DNA of 64,000 bases from an uncultured Chthonomonadaceae bacterium (GTDB lineage Bacteria > Armatimonadota > Chthonomonadetes > Chthonomonadales > Chthonomonadaceae): positions 79,062 through 143,061 of the forward strand of contig CAWIEK010000054.1 of the NCBI GenBank assembly GCA_963835065.1, written 5' to 3'. How positions within the stretch are numbered: the first letter of the stretch is position 1; each line of letters begins with the position of its first letter. The translations under genes and the position numbers were made by a program. This document shows, one piece after another, positions 1,781 through 64,000 of this stretch. Under the pieces are notes generated by a model, which saw only the letters and a program-made list of their open reading frames with translations, did not search any database and was not told the DNA's origin.

Positions 1781-4700
1781 TGCGGGCTTCCTGATGAGTT
1801 GGGTATTGGGCGAGCGCCTGCCGGTAGGATACGACGGCGGCGGCATAGGCTTCCGTGCGGAAGTAGCAGTTGCCCAGCACGAAGAAGCCGCCCTCCTGTT
1901 CGGGGCTGACTTCCAATCCGGCAAGATAGGTTTCCGCCGCCTTGTCGTACACGCCCAATTGGTACATCAGGTCGCCCGCGTTGAAGTAGGCGTTGCCATA
2001 CGTCGGGTCGCGCTGAATGGCCTCGGCGTAGTATTCCAGCGCTTCGCCCGGCGCGTTCAATCCTGCCAGTACGCGCCCCAAATTGACGCGCGCTTCCACC
2101 GACTCGGGACGCAGGCGCAGCAGGTTTTCGAACGCGGCGCGCGCTTCGTCCAGCAGATCGAGCTGTTCGCAGCAGGCCGCCAGTCGCGCCTGCGCCTCGT
2201 CATCGTCGGGTTTCTGCCATGCGGTGTGGCGCAGGTGCGGCAGGGCGCGTTCGTACTCCTTGCCCGCGTAATAGATCATGCCCAAATCGCGGATCGCGTC
2301 GTCGTGGGCCGGGCTTTGCGCCAGAACCATTTCCAATTCTTCACTTGCTTCCCACGTCCGATCCTGCTGCGTCAGGATGATGGCAAGCAGATACCGCGCT
2401 TCCACCATATTCGGCTGCTCTTCCAGGACTTCTTGACAGCACGGAATGGCTTCCACATGCCGATCCTGCCCGACAAGCGCCAGCGCAAGCCCGTACCGCG
2501 CCTTGTACGTGGACGCGCCCGCATCCCCGGTCTGCGTAAAGTGCGTATCGCTTGTTTCTTCGCGCCCTATGTCAATCGCCGCCCGGAACGCCATTTCCGC
2601 CGCCTCGTACTGTTCCGTGTGCAGCAGGCAGTAGCCGCGCGAAAATTCAATGCCCGCCTGCCGGAACCCTTTGGCGTCCGCCATCGCGCACACGTCCAAA
2701 CCTTCCCAGGGCTGCTGCATCCGGTGCAGGGCGGTGGACCATTCGACAAACAGGGTGACGCCGAACTCTTCCTCCTTGCCCACGCCCGGCGCGGCCAGGC
2801 TGAAATTGCGCGCGGCGTTGTCCATATCACCGAAGGTAAAGTAGGCGTTGCCAAGATTGAACAAATGGAAATCCCGGAAACCTTCGTCCGGGCACTCCTC
2901 CACTTCCCGCGTCAGCATACGGATAAACCGCTCGTGCTTGTTGCGCAGCGTCATGATCTCGCCCGCATACCCGAAGTGGTCAATCAGCAGGCCGTCGAAC
3001 CGCGCATACGTGTAGCCCAACGCCTGCAAGGAGCGCAGGTTCTGCTCGTGGATACGCCCCTCGAACTTTACGCCATCCACGCGCCGAAACAGGCGGCAGG
3101 CATGGTGAACCGCCATTTCGCCGCCCATCTCCTGCCCGGGTTTGGGCCGCGCCGCGGACGTAAGCCAGTTGTGAAACTTGACCATGTAGCCGCCCACTTC
3201 GGCAGGCGCGTTCCGCATGGCCTCGCGGAACAGAGGCCCGCTCCCCGGCGCAATCTCTTCGTCCGCATCCAGCCACAACACCCAATTGCCTGTCGCGTGT
3301 TCCAGCGACAGATTGCGCGCTTCGGCAAAATCGTCGTTCCATTCATAGGGCACGATCTTCGCGCCATATTCGCGGGCAATGTCCAGCGTCCCATCCGTCG
3401 AGCCGGTGTCCACAATCACAACCTCGTCCACAACGTCTTTCACCGATTCCAGACAGTTACGCAGGAACCGCTCCTCGTTTTTGACGATCATACACAGGGA
3501 AAGTGATGAGTGATGAGTGATGAGTGATGAATGGTCCTGTTCTTCTGTTCCCTGTTCCCTGTTCCCTGTTCCCTTTATCGCTTCTTCCGCCCGCTCATAC
3601 CGCTCCATCAGGCTGCGATAGGCGGGGGCGCGCTTGACGGCGGCGCGCTGCCTGTCGGGAACGCCGCGCAGCAGTTTGCGGGCTTTTTGCAGCACGGCGG
3701 TTTGGGCGCGCTCCACCGTGCGGCGCAGGTTGGGGTCGTCGGGCGTGGCCGCAAAGGCGAGAAGCACGTTTTCCAGCGCTTCTTCCGGCTGGCCTTCCGC
3801 CAGCAGAATAAAGCCCAGGTTGTGATGAAAGTCACGGGTATTAGGCGACGCGGCAATGCCCTGATGCAGCAGTTCCAGAGCGCGCGTTTTATCCCCGTTC
3901 GGTAACACGCGGCGGCAAGCGCGTTCACCACGTCCCAATCGTCCGCCCGCTCGATCAGGCAGGCATCCAGTTCTTCGACGGCGTTTTTCCAATCGCCGTT
4001 ACGCGCGGTTTCCAGCGCGGCCTGTTTGCGGTCCTCGTACATATCCCCGGCAGCTCGCAGTCCGGGCGTGGCAAAACTTCCCGGCAGGTTCAGCCCGCCC
4101 AACCCGGTATTTTGCCACCCCCCGCCCAGGCTCAAACCGCCCAGACCCATAGGGAGGTTGAGGGTTGAGGGTTGAGGGTTGAGAGGGGAAGACAATGCTG
4201 AATGCTGAGTGATGAGTGATGAATGGGATTCTGATTCATCATTCATCATTCCGCGTTCAGCACTGATTTTCCCTGTTCCCTGTTCCCTGTTCCCTGTTCC
4301 CTCACCCAGCGCGGACAGGCGCTCACCGGCAATCTGCGCGGCGTGATGCCAGGTATGTTTGGCCGCGATGTCGCGGGCGGCTTGCGCGCCTTTGGCCTGC
4401 GCTTCTTCCGGGTGGGCGGCGACGTGGCGGAGCAGTTCGCTCAGGGCGGCGCGGTCAGGTTCGGCCCAGAACGGATAATCTACCGTCGGCATGTTGCCGA
4501 CGTTCTTTTCCGCCATGCGCTGCGCTTCGGCGGGGATGAGATAACTATTCCCGGAGTTAGCGAAATCGAGAGCCGCGCCGAAATCAGTAACGATAGTTGG
4601 CTTGCCGCAGGCCATCGCTTCCGCAATCGGCAGGCCGTATCCCTCGCCCCGGTACGGATGTGCCAGGCAGTCACACGCGGCGTACAAACCAGCCAGTTCC

Positions 4701-15183: not shown

Positions 15184-15411
15184 TCACCACAGAGGCACAG
15201 AGACACAGAGGTTTCACAGAGAAATACGAGGGAGAGAAGAAGATAGAAGATATAAGATATTAGCGGGACTGCCTGCAAGCGTGTTGTCTCCTTGAATAAT
15301 CCTGTTTAATCCTTCTAATCCCGTTAATCCTGTCTATTTCTTCTCCTTTTCTCCTTTTTTCTTTTCTTCTTCTCTCTGTGAAACCTCTGTGTCTCTGTGC
15401 CTCTGTGGTGA
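15184..15411. repeat. ACCAC-ended palindromic element copy A
   Basis: ~39-bp perfect terminal inverted repeats TCACCACAGAGGCACAGAGACACAGAGGTTTCACAGAGA; near-identical to 19412-19623. Confidence 0.9.
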
Positions 15412-16717: not shown

Positions 16718-16833
16718 AATAGAATGTCCTTTGGCAAGATGAGCATTGAACCTGTATTGTACGGCACAATGAAAAGACAAGTCAAATGCTTACGCCGTGT
16801 GCAGCGTATACAGCCATAAGGAAGGCAGGTGGC

Positions 16834-17577
16834 ATGACCACACAAACAGGAAACGAACAAATGGAACGGCCCTGGCGCACGGAATTACTGGTATGCGCGG
16901 CGACGTGGATGGAACTGCGGTCATGGTGGCCGCGTGAAGACAATCGGGCGCGGTTGGCTGAGGGTGAAATGGCGTACAGCGCCGCGCTGACCTTTGCCGT
17001 AACGGGTGTCGGCATCCCCGCGTCGCTGGCGTTTCTCATTCGCTTGCTGCAAGAAGCGCGTCCTGCGCGTATATGGAATATCGGCATCGCGGGCGCGTAC
17101 CCGAACGCCGGTATTAACATTGGCGATATTGTAGTAGGCACATCGGAAGTGTATGGCGACATCGGCTTTGAACTGCCCGCTGAACCCGGCTTTCAATCCA
17201 TCCAAACCTCACCTTTTGCCGGCAAGCTGTACGCGGAACCCCTGCTCCTGCAAGTAGAACCGGAATGGGTCGCCCCCCTAACCAACAGCAACGCGCGCTC
17301 GTATCAGGTGCACGGGGGCAGGGGATGCACAGTCAACCAATGTACAGGTACGCCCGAAACCGGCAACCTGCGCGAACAAATGTTCAATGTCGCGTTTGAA
17401 AGCATGGAAGGCGCGGCGATAGCGCAGGCCGGGCAGATGTTCCACATCCCGGTCAGCGAAATCCGCGCCATCAGCAACATCGCCTCCACCCGCGACATGC
17501 AGCCCGACAACATACGCCTTGCCATCGCCAATCTGCGCGATTATCTGGAACGAATACCCAAAATCCAACACTCATGA
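16834..17577 (+). CDS. mqnB: Futalosine hydrolase
   Basis: TGVG, NIGIAGAY, ESMEGAA, EIRAISN; coupled to mqnD. Confidence 0.85.
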   Translation: MTTQTGNEQMERPWRTELLVCAATWMELRSWWPREDNRARLAEGEMAYSAALTFAVTGVGIPASLAFLIRLLQEARPARIWNIGIAGAYPNAGINIGDIVVGTSEVYGDIGFELPAEPGFQSIQTSPFAGKLYAEPLLLQVEPEWVAPLTNSNARSYQVHGGRGCTVNQCTGTPETGNLREQMFNVAFESMEGAAIAQAGQMFHIPVSEIRAISNIASTRDMQPDNIRLAIANLRDYLERIPKIQHS

Positions 17578-18500
17578 CAACCCTTTCTTTAGGTATTTCT
17601 CCCTGCCCCAACGACGTTTTCATCTTCAGCGGCATCCTGCTGAACCAAATTCCCATGAACAACCTGCGCTTCGACGTAGATTTTCAGGACGTGGAAAACT
17701 TAAATCAGCAGGCGCAGGCGGGCCGTCTGGATGTGGTAAAAATCAGCTACGCCAACTACATTCACTGCCGCAACGAGTATGACCTGCTGCCCTGCGGCGG
17801 CGCGTTAGGCCGGGGCGTCGGGCCGCTGCTGCTCGTTAATGCAGAAGAAAAGGAGAAAAGGAGAAAAGGAGAAAAGGAAACGGAAGAGCAGGGAACAGGG
17901 AACAGGGAACAGGGAACAGAAGAGAATGCCCTATCAACTATCAACTATCAACTATCAACTCCTGCTTCATCCTTCATCCTTCATCCTTCATCCTTTCCCC
18001 TCCTCGTTCCCGGCGTAAATACTACCGCCAATTTTCTGCTGGATTTTTATGCCAATCCGAACGGAACTACGCCGCTGCAAAAGCGGTTTCTGCCGTTCGA
18101 TGCGCTCTATGACGAACTGTGCCGGACGCCGGGGGCGCGGGGCGTGGTGATTCACGAGAAGCGGTTTACGTATGAACAGGACGGCCTGACGCTCATTCAG
18201 GACTTGGGCGCGTATTGGGAACAGCAGACCGGGTATGCCATTCCGCTTGGGGCAATCTGCGTCCGCAAGTCACTCGACCTGGCTGCTCAACTTACCGATA
18301 TAATTCAGCGCAGCCTCGCCTGGGCTTACGCGCATTACGAGCAAGCCTTTGAACTTTGCAAACAATACGCGCAGGATTTAAGCGCGGGCGTGGTCGAATC
18401 CCATATCCGGCTGTACGTCAATTCGTATTCCGAAAACCTGGGCGCGGACGGAGAAGCCGCCGTCCGCTTCTTCCTCGAACAACAAGGCGTCAGGCAGTAG
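17574..18500 (+). CDS. mqnD: 1,4-dihydroxy-6-naphthoate synthase, with ~50-aa repeat-derived insertion
   Basis: SPCPND, DVENLN, GGALGRGVGPLL, VIHEKRFTY, IPLG, HIRLYVN. Confidence 0.92.
   Translation: MTTLSLGISPCPNDVFIFSGILLNQIPMNNLRFDVDFQDVENLNQQAQAGRLDVVKISYANYIHCRNEYDLLPCGGALGRGVGPLLLVNAEEKEKRRKGEKETEEQGTGNREQGTEENALSTINYQLSTPASSFILHPSSFPLLVPGVNTTANFLLDFYANPNGTTPLQKRFLPFDALYDELCRTPGARGVVIHEKRFTYEQDGLTLIQDLGAYWEQQTGYAIPLGAICVRKSLDLAAQLTDIIQRSLAWAYAHYEQAFELCKQYAQDLSAGVVESHIRLYVNSYSENLGADGEAAVRFFLEQQGVRQ
17846..17996. repeat. In-frame four-array cassette inside mqnD
   Basis: GAAAAGGA x~4, GGGAACA x4, TCAACTA x4, TCATCCT x4. Confidence 0.95.
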
Positions 18501-18581
18501 GTGTCAGGTGTCAGGTGTCAGGTGTCAGGTATTGGCTTCTGTCTTCTGCCCTAATACCTGACACCTGACACCTGACACCTA
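18499..18581. repeat. Inverted GGTGTCA arrays
   Basis: Between mqnD and larC. Confidence 0.9.
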
Positions 18582-18600
18582 AACTATGCTGGAGGCTGGT

Positions 18601-19411
18601 ATGCGTATCGCTTATTTTGATTGTTTTAGCGGCGTGAGTGGAGATATGATTTTGGGCGCGCTGCTTCATGCGGGCGTGGACGAGGAGGCTTGGCGGGGTG
18701 AACTTGCCAAGCTCAACGTGCCGGGGTATGAACTGCAAATCGGCATGGTCGTGAAAGAAGGCATTTCGGGCATGGACGTGGACGTGGTTCTGCATGAGCA
18801 GGATCAGGGACACGGGCGGCACATGGCTGACATCGAAGAAATCCTGCACAAAAGCGGCGTGTCGGAAAACATTCGCTGCCGCGCTTTGGGCGCGTTCACC
18901 CGGCTGGCCCACGCCGAAGCCAAAATCCACGCCATGACGCCCGATACCATCCACTTTCACGAAGTGGGCGCGGTGGACGCTATCGTAGACATTGTGGGCG
19001 CGTGTATCGGGCTGGAAATGCTGGGCGTGGAGAAAGTGTACGCTTCGCCCCTGCCGTTCAATCGCGGGCTGGGTGGAGTGCGCGCACGGCACAATGCCGG
19101 TTCCCGCGCCCGCCACAATGGAACTGCTGGTCGGTTTCCCCCTGCGTCCCGATGACCGCCCGAAAGAACTGATTACGCCAACCGGCGCATGTCTCTTATC
19201 GGAATGGGCCGAACGGACGCCCGACGGCGACATTGCTCCGCTTCCCGCTTTCGTGCCCCGCGTCATCGGCTACGGCGCGGGCAAGCGCGACTCGTGGATA
19301 CCCAACTTACTGCGCCTAGTCGTCGGCGACACCTATGAAGAACCGCTCAAAAAGCCCTACGGCACAAAACGCCCTACAACCGTCCGTCCATTAAAAACAA
19401 AACATAAGTAG
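18601..19411 (+). CDS. larC: LarC-family nickel insertion protein (N-terminal part; frameshift at ~19067)
   Basis: YFDCFSGVSGDM, HFHEVGAVDAIVD, CAHGTMPVPAPAT, ELITPTGA, GYGAG..PNLLR. Confidence 0.85.
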
Positions 19412-19623
19412 TTCACCACAGAGGCACAGAGACACAGAGGTTTCACAGAGAAATACGAGGGAGAGAAGAAGATAGAAGATATAAGATATTAGCGGGACGT
19501 GCTCTGTCTTAATCCTGTTTAATCCTAATCCCGTTAATCCTGTCTATTTCTTCTCCTTTTCTCCTTTTCTTCTTTTCTTCTTCTCTCTGTGAAACCTCTG
19601 TGTCTCTGTGCCTCTGTGGTGAA
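19412..19623. repeat. ACCAC-ended palindromic element copy B
   Basis: Same TIRs and internal arrays as 15184-15411; starts right after the larC stop. Confidence 0.9.
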
Positions 19624-19631
19624 TGACTCCG

Positions 19632-21623
19632 CTATTTCAGGGAGCGGCCGAAGGGAGGAACCAGGCCCTGTTCGACGGCGAGACGGGTGGCTTCCGTGCG
19701 GTTGGTGACGTCCAATTTGGTGAACAGGTTGGACAGGTGGTACTCGACGGTTTTGGGAGCGATGAACAAGGCGGTGGCGATCTCTTTATTGCGCGCCCCC
19801 TGCGCCAGAAGCTGCAAAATCTCGCGTTCGCGCTCGTTCAGGTCGAAACGCCCGTGTCCTGACGCCAGCGCCGCAAGATGATCCGTGACAACCGGAGCCA
19901 GCAGGGATTTGCCCCGGTGCGCCGCCTGTATCGCCGCCACCAATTCCGTCGCGTTGGTATCTTTCAGCAGAAACCCCCGCGCGCCCAATCCCAACGCTTC
20001 CGAAATCGCATGTTCCGTGTGCAGCGTCGTCAAAATCACGACAGGAACTTTGGGCTTGCGGATATGCAGCCGCCGCAAGCCTTCCAGTCCGTCCACATCC
20101 GGCATCTGCAAGTCCATCAGCACGACATCCGGCTCGATGAGCAGGGTTTGCTCCACCGCCTGCGCCCCATTCGCCGCTTCCCCGACCACAACGACTTCGG
20201 GGCTGGTTTGCAGCATCACCCGTATTCCCTGCCGCGCCAGCGCATGGTCATCCACAATCAACACTTTAATCGGGTTGAGGGGGGCAGGAGTTGATAGTTG
20301 ATAGTTGATAGTTGATGGCGCATCCTCTGCTTCTGTCTTCTGTCTTCTGTCTTCTGTCTTCCCTTCTGTTCCCTGTTCCCTGTTCCCTGTTCCCTGATGA
20401 ATGGGCGTGGCCGGGCGGTAGGGCAGGGACACGCGCAGTCGGGTTCCCCAGCCGGGGGTGCTGTCTATGTGCAGCATCGCGCCGACGAGTTGGGCGCGTT
20501 CGCGGATACCGAACAGGCCATAGCCGCTTTCGGGACCGGGAGTACGCTCGGCTTCAGGGTCAAATCCAACGCCGTCATCTTCAATGAGCAGGGTGACTTC
20601 CTTTGCGCCATATTGCAGACCGACGCGGATACGCTGCGGCTGCGCGTGTTTACGGGCGTTGGTCAGGGCTTCCTGCGCGATGCGGAGCAGGGACGCGCGC
20701 TGATCGGGCGTCAGCGGCTGTTCCTCACCCGAAAGGATAAACTGCGTGGCAATACCCAACTCGGTTTCCAGTTGCTCGGCTTCCTGCGCAATCGCCTGCG
20801 CGGGCGACAGCGCTTCGGCGGCGGAAGCGGCCAGGCCGCGCACCGCGCGGCGCGTATCTTCCAGCGCGGTTTTCGCCAGCCCGTGCGCCTGTGTCAGCAT
20901 CTCTTCAGCCCCGGCAATGTCGGAGCGTCGCAGCGCGATGCGCGTGGTTTCGATTTGCAGAATCACGACAACAAGAGCCTGCGCAACGGTATCGTGGATT
21001 TCGCGCGCCAAGCGGTTGCGCTCTTCCAGCATGGCGATTTCGCGCTGCTGTTCAATGCGCTGCGACAGGGCGATTGCCAGCGTTCCCATATCCGCCAGGC
21101 TTTGAAAACCTTCCATTTCCTCCGGCGCGAACTCTCGACCGGCCTCCGGGTAGACTACAAGCGCGCCGGCAAAGCGCTGCTCATATTGCAGCGTAATCAT
21201 CAGCAGGCTGGAAATATTTTCGTCCCGGTACAGTTGGCGCAGTTCGGGGCTGAGTTCGTTATCTTCCTGCACGTTAGGTGCGAAGATGGGCTGCCCGGAT
21301 GCCTGCGCGCGGCGGAGAATGGGAGACATGGGCACGACCTGCGTGACCGCGTTGGCGTATTCCAGCGACACATTGCGCAGAGCAATCGGCGCGATACGGC
21401 CCTGCTCGTCCCGCAAAAACAGGCCGATGCGCTCCACATGCAAATGTCGGGCGATCACCTCGCTGATCAAACGCGCCACTTCCGCCAGGGGCTTGCCTTC
21501 CAGAATGGCGGCGGCTACTTCCCGTCCATAAAATTGTGTCGGCGCATTGGCGTCACATTCCGCAGTTGTCGCTATTCGTGGCTGCATCTTTCTCACCACT
21601 CCCCTTCCGGCATACTCGCGCAT
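19632..21623 (-). CDS. Fused GAF-HisKA_3-HATPase-REC-LuxR hybrid regulator
   Basis: EERNRLAREIHD, QEALTNARKHA, DDGVGF, VDDH, MDLQMP, REREIL...NKEIA...KTVEYH. Confidence 0.9.
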   Translation of the reverse strand: MREYAGRGVVRKMQPRIATTAECDANAPTQFYGREVAAAILEGKPLAEVARLISEVIARHLHVERIGLFLRDEQGRIAPIALRNVSLEYANAVTQVVPMSPILRRAQASGQPIFAPNVQEDNELSPELRQLYRDENISSLLMITLQYEQRFAGALVVYPEAGREFAPEEMEGFQSLADMGTLAIALSQRIEQQREIAMLEERNRLAREIHDTVAQALVVVILQIETTRIALRRSDIAGAEEMLTQAHGLAKTALEDTRRAVRGLAASAAEALSPAQAIAQEAEQLETELGIATQFILSGEEQPLTPDQRASLLRIAQEALTNARKHAQPQRIRVGLQYGAKEVTLLIEDDGVGFDPEAERTPGPESGYGLFGIRERAQLVGAMLHIDSTPGWGTRLRVSLPYRPATPIHQGTGNREQGTEGKTEDRRQKTEAEDAPSTINYQLSTPAPLNPIKVLIVDDHALARQGIRVMLQTSPEVVVVGEAANGAQAVEQTLLIEPDVVLMDLQMPDVDGLEGLRRLHIRKPKVPVVILTTLHTEHAISEALGLGARGFLLKDTNATELVAAIQAAHRGKSLLAPVVTDHLAALASGHGRFDLNEREREILQLLAQGARNKEIATALFIAPKTVEYHLSNLFTKLDVTNRTEATRLAVEQGLVPPFGRSLK
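20272..20396. repeat. In-frame heptamer cassette forming kinase-REC linker
   Basis: GGGAACA, GAAGACA, TCAACTA arrays. Confidence 0.95.
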
Positions 21624-63262: not shown

Positions 63263-64000
63263 AGACAGGTATCACCTGATGCAAGTCAGTTTTCCTTTGA
63301 TTTAGCCGTGTCTCAGGTAATACAAGTCAGTCGTTTACGTCAGTCCGCTTGGTGTTTGCTCGGCAAGCGGTACACCGCTTCTTGCAAGAGCGGTTGTTGG
63401 TCGGGCGTACTGCGCCGCAGGGCATGAAAGCGGATCACGTCTTGATCCAAGTCTACATCACAGCGCACCAAGCGTTGGAGCCACGGCGGCGAGACCAGGA
63501 AGGTATGGCCGAACACGCTGGCTTGTCCCTGCGCATCCGTGCGCCGCACATAGATAATCTTGCCCTGCGGACGTTGCTGGCGCAACTGCTTGAGGTCCAG
63601 CAGCGCGGCTTCGGGAAAGGCGCGGCGCGACGGGGCACTTTCTTGGCGCAGCACCCTGCGTTGGCGGGCCGCGCGCAGCACCCTGCGTTGGCGGGCCGCG
63701 CGCAGCACCCTGCGTTGGCGGGCCGCGCGCAGCACCTTGTCGGACTGCGCTTGCAGCGCGAGCAGGCTTTCATGGTGGAAACGCGGCCACACCTTTTGCT
63801 GCCAACGATTGTTGTAACTTTCAAGAGCAGCCTGAAAGCCGGTTTCGCGTTGTGGAGCAAACACGGGCGTGACACGCAGGCTCAGGCACAGACGCATCAC
63901 CGTGCCAATCACTCAGGCACAGACGCATCACCGTGCCAATCACTCAGGCAAACTGATGTGGCCCTTGAAAGCGGGGGGCGTTGTCGAACTGCACGTCCTG
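63263..64000 (-). mobile_element. IS remnant (IS481-like): transposase C-terminus + right end, disrupted by tandem duplications
   Basis: QFDN, PVFAP.RETGFQAA.ESYN..WQ integrase-like core; end repeats TRCAAGTCAG. Confidence 0.75.

Follow-up and report, generated by a model that had tools for sequence, protein, structure and literature searches.

A repeat-derived, probably translated loop in the menaquinone enzyme MqnD of an uncultured Chthonomonadaceae bacterium

How can a conserved metabolic enzyme carry a run of tandem-repeat DNA in the middle of its reading frame, and what becomes of that DNA when the gene is expressed? The question is raised by mqnD, the gene of the menaquinone enzyme 1,4-dihydroxy-6-naphthoate synthase, in a 64,000-nucleotide stretch of DNA (the window) from an uncultured Chthonomonadaceae bacterium, whose assembly we call the window genome. 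A preliminary description had reported an in-frame insert of about 50 residues built of four different arrays, at a place where MqnD orthologs were held to have a short loop, and had likened it to Rickettsia palindromic elements. The cassette consists of four arrays of a genome-wide repeat family that lie in frame, and in our judgement it is probably translated as a tolerated, predicted-disordered and fast-turnover loop of a likely working enzyme. The preliminary description overlooked a clade-wide hotspot with module turnover, the replacement of native residues, and a coding family of about 250 members.

The cassette and the enzyme around it

The gene, its upstream neighbour and the parts of the cassette, with arrays delimited by Tandem Repeats Finder, are listed below; G002 is a genome of the same genus.

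16786..17577, + strand: mqnB, futalosine hydrolase, whose open reading frame overlaps the start of the mqnD frame (TIGR03664, 132 bits, cut-off 124.7)
17574..18500, + strand: mqnD, 1,4-dihydroxy-6-naphthoate synthase, 308 residues (PF02621; 2CZL; model match to 2CZL and 1ZBM)
17841..17999, + strand: non-homologous loop, residues 90-142, cassette plus linkers, replacing the native loop of about 11 residues (alignments; pLDDT)
17846..17878, + strand: outer left-class array, 8-mer AGAAAAGG, 4.1 copies, E/K/R-rich peptide; common to G002
17889..17919, + strand: inner left-class array, 7-mer CAGGGAA, 4.4 copies; missing at the G002 site
17931..17960, + strand: inner right-class array, 7-mer CTATCAA, 4.3 copies; G002 has a CAATCGG array there; the peptide word also occurs in homologue P0002
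17965..17995, + strand: outer right-class array, 7-mer CTTCATC, 4.4 copies; common to G002; sits where the native W/F-D-x-x-x-E was

In the list of open reading frames, the mqnD frame (17574-18500, + strand) runs uninterrupted through the cassette. All four arrays are 100% matches; together they occupy 17846-17995 and code for residues 91-141. Chance origin is excluded: the window holds 25 exact period-7 arrays of at least three copies, against none in 30 third-order Markov simulations. The alignment to the solved Thermus thermophilus MqnD (2CZL) falls into two blocks, query 2-88 on chain 2-87 and query 143-303 on chain 99-257, leaving 54 query residues against 11 in the chain; with the arrays and the open frame, this bears out the four-array insert of the preliminary description. 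The ortholog alignment that the description had proposed was run on the best 120 of 2,288 homologues, 115 of which could be parsed by the loop pattern: the loop has 11 residues in 85 of the 115 and 10-12 in 96, and 55 in the window protein. The alignments show no native W/F-D-x-x-x-E segment ahead of the next strand, its place being taken by repeat-derived residues. Judged by these alignments, the cassette is not a pure insertion, and native loop residues were replaced.

That the gene is MqnD, as the preliminary description had it, agrees with the comparisons of sequence and fold. The product matches PF02621 (E 9.5e-55, 186 bits), and its best solved sequence match is 2CZL (E 5.9e-53); NCBIfam assigned no family to it. 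It contains the SPCPND, KxS, PGxxTTA and HE motifs, invariant or nearly so across the 120 homologues, which we take to be the active-site motifs of MqnD. S58, T151, H194 and E195 are intact and align with S57, T107, H145 and E146 of 2CZL, presumably the catalytic or active-site residues; a literature search found no text on MqnD active-site residues. An AlphaFold model built from the 120-row alignment has a mean pLDDT of 89, with blocks of 85-98 outside the loop. Within the loop (residues 91-140), which sits between strands 85-88 and 143-145, the pLDDT is 51-64, and a short helix is modelled at 131-136. The two entries that Foldseek places at the top are 2CZL and 1ZBM (target TM 0.88-0.89; best match 2CZL, E 9e-27), with MqnA-type entries at 1e-10 or weaker. 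The product is thus predicted to fold as MqnD around a low-confidence loop. The enzyme core is under purifying selection: across 240 codons, comparison with G002 gives a dN/dS of 0.115, and comparison with a second same-genus genome, G001, gives 0.164. Selection and model together suggest that the enzyme is likely still working, and support the earlier suggestion that it tolerates a repeat-derived peptide. The protein resembles T. thermophilus MqnD (TTHA1568, PDB 2CZL/3A3U; PF02621) in sequence, fold, conserved motifs and linkage to mqnB, and differs from it by a net 43-44 extra residues after the strand ending at 88 and by the replaced native segment.

The window genome (8.0 Mb, 71 contigs, 91.9% complete) also holds mqnC above its cut-off, an mqnE-like gene just below its own (429 bits, cut-off 434.55) and an MqnA-type PF02621 gene, which we assign to the mqnA type by motif. 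In this assembly menD had no match and menB none above the cut-off; pathway context for the futalosine route is given in the accessible part of PMC4763440. Two further PF02621 paralogues, which share 99.7% identity, have neither the SPCPND nor the HE motif, and the window gene is the sole intact mqnD found in the genome. We rejected redundancy as a cause of tolerance, since both other MqnD-like copies are without the conserved motifs. As a separate observation, these degenerate copies belong to two 99.7% identical 3.7-kb stretches (L032 and L033; G000:C36 and C57, G000 being the window genome), beside a gene with TPR plus AAA ATPase domains; the stretches reflect either a recent duplication or strain redundancy of the assembly, and the degenerate protein is possibly a non-catalytic binding protein.

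A genome-wide cassette family

Two further cassettes lie close to mqnD.

18499..18580, + strand: intergenic cassette at the mqnD stop, inverted 7-mer arrays, strong hairpin (z = -10.4 for 18485-18590); missing in G002
20289..20396, - strand: second in-frame cassette, three arrays, in the kinase/receiver linker of the neighbour gene, no hairpin (z = +0.87); the G002 copy has different modules and is 6 nt shorter

The neighbour gene (19632-21623, - strand) encodes a GAF-histidine kinase-receiver-LuxR fusion. Elsewhere in the window, two nested hairpin cassettes at convergent gene ends, 15188-15407 and 19417-19618, are composed of 8-, 7- and 9-mer arrays and are nearly identical, which suggests that one whole cassette was copied. 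Genome-wide, many intergenic cassettes start precisely with the stop codon of the preceding gene, and this codon belongs to the first unit (for example 18498-18530). Perfect tandem repeats at 63646-63736 (27-mer, 3.4 copies) and 63881-63950 (31-mer, 2.3 copies) are unrelated to the heptamer family.

Across the window genome, 2,935 period-7/8 arrays form 1,860 cassettes and make up 1.6% of the DNA. Under one filter, 2,349 arrays have period 7 and 586 period 8, against 17, 31, 146, 30 and 18 for periods 5, 6, 9, 10 and 11, and array spans peak tightly at 30-33 nt. Cassettes are built of left-class arrays followed by right-class arrays, about 30 nt each, and units show strong polarity, one orientation standing first and its reverse complement last (201:1, 164:9 and 144:0, for example). 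A home-made Markov model of coding potential, in which a frameshifted gene and two adjacent genes are not separable, classed 257 cassettes as in-frame coding, 470 as lying, with a stop, between coding flanks of the same direction and 818 as having coding on one side only, the rest falling otherwise.

The in-frame coding cassettes fall, in 251 of 257 cases, in 220 open reading frames. We drew 60 frames at random from the 168 of these 220 with up to 900 residues; 51 had a Pfam match, and in at least 20 of the 60 the cassette lies inside or splits a domain (coordinates read by eye), many others lying in linkers. Among the sampled products are NAD-dependent DNA ligase (ligA), topoisomerase I (topA), CarB, GlmS and two GidA-family proteins. 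Because many frames hold in-frame cassettes, also within domains, the mqnD cassette is typical of its genome. For one exact 24-mer taken from the inner array, the window genome gives 256 matches (overlaps counted), and only 5 of 60 relatives have any, with 5-21 each; unit usage is therefore lineage-specific.

Module turnover at the same site in relatives

We built a tree from 36 core sequences with the loop removed, comprising homologues P0001-P0030 and six chosen rows, several of them chosen for long loops, with 84 homologues left out. It contains a clade of 14 rows (support 95/91) in which every loop exceeds 12 residues (range 14-55); outside the clade, 19 of 22 rows have 11-12 residues, and the other three (15, 16 and 43) are all among the rows chosen for length. 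The earlier statement that orthologs have only a short loop therefore holds outside this clade and fails inside it, where all 14 loops are longer. P0008-P0012 and P0082 retain a native F-D-x-x-R-E-like segment, mostly behind a charged extension, whereas in P0001-P0005 (support 100/99), P0006 and P0007 it is gone and other words stand instead. Because P0007 groups (100/95) with P0010 and P0011, both of which retain the segment, it appears to have been overwritten at least twice. At the protein level, the loops of P0002, P0003, P0004, P0006, P0007 and P0082 carry peptide words of differing array families of the window genome. At the DNA level, the G002 site has the outer 8-mer and CTTCATC-type arrays as in the window with a CAATCGG array inside, and at the G001 site a short purine-rich extension accompanies an intact native segment. 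Inserts at orthologous sites vary in length and sequence, and no insert residue is conserved. From these comparisons the MqnD loop site is an old, clade-wide hotspot and not a one-off. A long loop also occupies this site in the more distant MqnD P0104; it has 43 residues, is independent and shows no evident repeat words.

As assembled, G002 mqnD lacks a single base in an A-run within the outer array and is thereby out of frame. Frame switches occur in 47 of the 208 genes compared (400 kb of the ~7.5-Mb G002), and for this reason we read the gap as a probable assembly error, though it could be real. A real frameshift would suit a phase-variation switch, in which slippage by one 7- or 8-nt unit throws mqnD out of frame, so that some cells of the population stop making menaquinone; in other bacteria, in-gene tandem arrays give rise to phase variation (PMC4692102, in its accessible part). 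We regard such a switch as unlikely: the G002 change is one homopolymer base and not a repeat unit, relatives differ in whole modules and not in unit number, and array spans are tight at 30-33 nt genome-wide. Moreover, the same cassettes sit in ligA, topA, carB and glmS, and mqnD is the sole intact copy, with no alternative men pathway found.

The persistence of a longer loop in all 14 clade members could instead mean that it was recruited for a function, as a binding surface, a solubility tag or a degradation signal, or as a structural substitute for the native segment that was lost. The modelled short helix at 131-136 fits this idea, as does the clade of P0001-P0005, where repeat-derived residues must bridge the two strands because the native segment is gone. 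Recruitment nonetheless receives little credence from us, as length (14-55 residues) and sequence differ in each relative with no insert residue conserved, the same peptide words are found in unrelated proteins, and model confidence in the loop is low. On the preferred reading of a tolerated loop, its peptide sequence is probably not needed and the site merely accommodates it.

Could the cassette be an assembly artefact, or mqnD a decaying gene under relaxed selection? No reads of the strain were found: no RNA run was listed with the sequence, the best DNA run had 0.24 of the words, and none of the contigs bridged the cassette. From a related strain, with 25 differences in 544 nt, one contig starts within the last array and covers the remainder of mqnD, with too few letters on the repeat side for bridging. 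The next gene downstream in the window, a larC-like nickel insertion gene (PF01969, 18586-19411), is broken across two frames near 19070, which is likely an assembly error because G002 breaks frame elsewhere within the same gene. Artefact or decay is nevertheless very improbable, given that the independently assembled G002 shares the outer arrays at this position, that related inserts occur there in proteins of other public assemblies, that dN/dS is low (0.115 against G002) and that the conserved columns are intact.

Translation, spread and meaning of the cassettes

Cassettes in genes and between genes differ in ways that bear on translation. The hydrophilic orientation outnumbers the other by 340:23 in coding and 139:59 in co-directional intergenic cassettes (families stop-free both ways; arrays not independent), and complementary arms occur in 22 of 181 coding against 249 of 387 co-directional intergenic multi-array cassettes. 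Within the window, three intergenic copies fold with z of -9.4 to -13.0 and two coding copies with -0.1 and +0.9. Compared with G002, length differs by a multiple of 3 at 11 of 16 coding sites against 9 of 41 unique sites of other kinds (Fisher p 0.0016), leaving 5 of the 16 coding sites where it does not; most coding sites are filled in both genomes, with differing modules. Stop-bearing units take the form of substituted, stop-avoiding variants in the coding sense, one variant occurring in 10 coding and 0 intergenic cassettes and another in 25 against 6; the lack of stops itself is not counted as evidence, the coding class being defined as open and the argument circular. Hairpins are typical of intergenic and 23S rRNA copies, while coding copies are mostly unpaired, in frame and hydrophilic-facing. 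Lost pairing, frame keeping and hydrophilic orientation together point to translation of the coding cassettes rather than their removal from RNA.

A hairpin role for the mqnD cassette was rejected, as it folds like its shuffles (z = -0.10 against 200 shuffles). Intron- or IVS-like removal of the cassette from RNA, giving a protein without the insert, is favoured by family copies that form long IVS-like hairpins in the 23S rRNA gene and by RNase III excision of the heptamer-bearing IVS of Coxiella 23S rRNA (PMC4990558, as excerpted), and yet merits hardly any belief here. In that accessible text, excision in Coxiella leaves the RNA in fragments, which an mRNA would not survive, and the mqnD cassette forms no hairpin. 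A cassette removed from RNA would not need to keep frame, take the hydrophilic orientation or use variants that avoid stops, and, the native segment being gone, full removal would yield a loop shorter than in any of the 115 parsed homologues.

How the modules travel can be partly read from their junctions. Cassette junctions and non-repeat linkers of the mqnD cassette recur elsewhere in the genome (2, 7 and 5 further matches with up to 4 mismatches), one other locus is 90% identical over 135 nt spanning three of its arrays, and both boundaries of the cassette are unique. De novo slippage was rejected as sufficient on its own, since distant cassettes share non-repeat linkers. In-gene modules show strong phase preference (1/29/7 and 0/25/0, for example), and in 232 intergenic hairpins 111 of 250 unit-deviating positions deviate identically in both arms (a raw count with no null). 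These patterns suggest in-register copying between cassettes and between arms. At filled and empty sites compared with G002 by eye, a clear target-site duplication, as expected of a MITE, was not seen.

For the mqnD site, then, the clade ancestor would have gained a purine-rich arm ahead of the native loop. Copying from other cassettes, by ectopic gene conversion or repeated nested insertion, may have added and swapped modules of about 30 nt with their linkers, overwriting the native segment at least twice. Selection at the protein level would have retained only in-frame, stop-free, hydrophilic versions, with mismatched left and right arms and an abolished hairpin as the consequence.

The same array families lie beside two kinds of small gene and in the 23S rRNA gene.

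G000:C25:14102-14416, C8:32017-32325, C33:57207-57524, C19:8329-8673, C39:76631-76981 and C3:174084-174431: PF05635 and PF13366 genes, between inverted arrays
L276:1082-4304 (G000:C49), - strand: 23S rRNA gene, 3,223 nt long where the model has 2,925 positions, with three heptamer cassettes
L276:2091-2200, 2816-2937 and 3958-3990: the 23S rRNA cassettes, at least two as long hairpins

Inverted arrays of 7-, 8- or 9-mers enclose each of the three PF05635 (four-helix-bundle) and three PF13366 (GxxExxY) genes found (flanks partly read by eye). One 23S cassette replaces a short loop of G002 and is 121 nt longer, at what we take to be helix 68, not a usual IVS site; at another site the hairpin in G002 is built from another heptamer family. 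The cassette family is probably related to the heptamer-armed cassettes bracketing the four-helix-bundle and GxxExxY genes, and a link to IVS-type cassettes is plausible. A bolder extension, which we hold to be conceivable but rather doubtful, invokes a putative dedicated machinery, tied to the four-helix-bundle (Avd-like) and GxxExxY genes within the same inverted arrays, that would both create and revise the cassettes by exchanging modules of ~30 nt in register from locus to locus. Hundreds of protein loops, some of them in essential enzymes, would then be continually diversified from a shared, translation-adapted peptide vocabulary, even overwriting native residues.

Heptanucleotide long simple-sequence repeats of bacteria include the cyanobacterial STRR. 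The window genome shares with them a genome-wide excess of dispersed period-7 arrays. In the accessible texts, Geobacter metallireducens has four-copy 7/8-mer elements within and between genes, with paired 8-mer sites (PMC2700814); stop codons limit the in-gene orientation of the TAACTGA repeats of Beggiatoaceae, whose in-gene copies are mostly peripheral (PMC4679880); and GGGAATC and GGGGA(C/T)T heptamers are intragenic in Xanthomonas and Nostoc (PMC4692102). As far as these texts reach, the likeness lies in dispersed 7-/8-nt arrays of about four units, often paired on opposite strands, inter- and intragenic, with stop codons limiting orientation in genes. Published copies described there are mainly intergenic, the in-gene ones mostly at protein ends or in hypothetical proteins, whereas the window genome has about 250 multi-family in-frame cassettes, inside Pfam domains in at least 20 of the 60 sampled frames, with modules exchanged at fixed orthologous sites.

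The likeness to Rickettsia palindromic elements drawn earlier fits the outcome, an in-frame repeat peptide in metabolic enzymes, and not the element. In the available part of PMC10969869, those elements are about 150 bp long, lie in frame in unrelated metabolic genes and are predicted to be fold-compatible; the mqnD cassette likewise is repeat-derived, about 150 bp long and in frame in a metabolic gene. As described there, the Rickettsia elements are palindromic and encode a conserved peptide, whereas the mqnD cassette is not palindromic (z = -0.10), the inserts vary in length and sequence with no fixed peptide, and variable tandem-repeat modules of about 30 nt, free of a coding hairpin, turn over in place and replace native residues. 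The accessible account of the Coxiella 23S IVS (PMC4990558) has heptamer repeats in the stem region, replacement of a small loop and excision by RNase III. Like IVS elements with an S23p/PF05635 frame, the array families of the window genome bracket all three PF05635 genes and form hairpins in its 23S gene; long stem-loops in rRNA are found in these sister copies, while the mqnD copy lies in mRNA, has no frame of its own, has lost its pairing and is probably retained and translated.

Our literature search, which reached few subscription papers, turned up no description of modules being exchanged at fixed in-frame sites or of native residues being replaced. Heptamer arrays in genes are already in print, and the supplements of PMC2700814 and PMC4679880, as cited in the accessible text, list in-gene repeats that may bear on novelty; module turnover with native-residue replacement is less familiar. 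The mqnD cassette clearly exemplifies a repeat class that is known but not explained.

It offers a traceable case of repeat DNA turning into protein sequence, in which one loop of a conserved enzyme forms a graded series within a clade, from native, through native plus one arm, to a segment overwritten by varied modules. The hairpins of intergenic and 23S copies, set against the unpaired, hydrophilic, in-frame copies in genes, show how selection filters a selfish repeat. For annotation, such inserts split domain matches and mimic low-complexity artefacts. MqnD is a practical test of whether the loop is translated and neutral because it is small, its structure is solved and its reaction is known, and the 1,860 cassettes, with filled, empty and swapped orthologous sites, are good material on the origin and spread of heptamer repeats.
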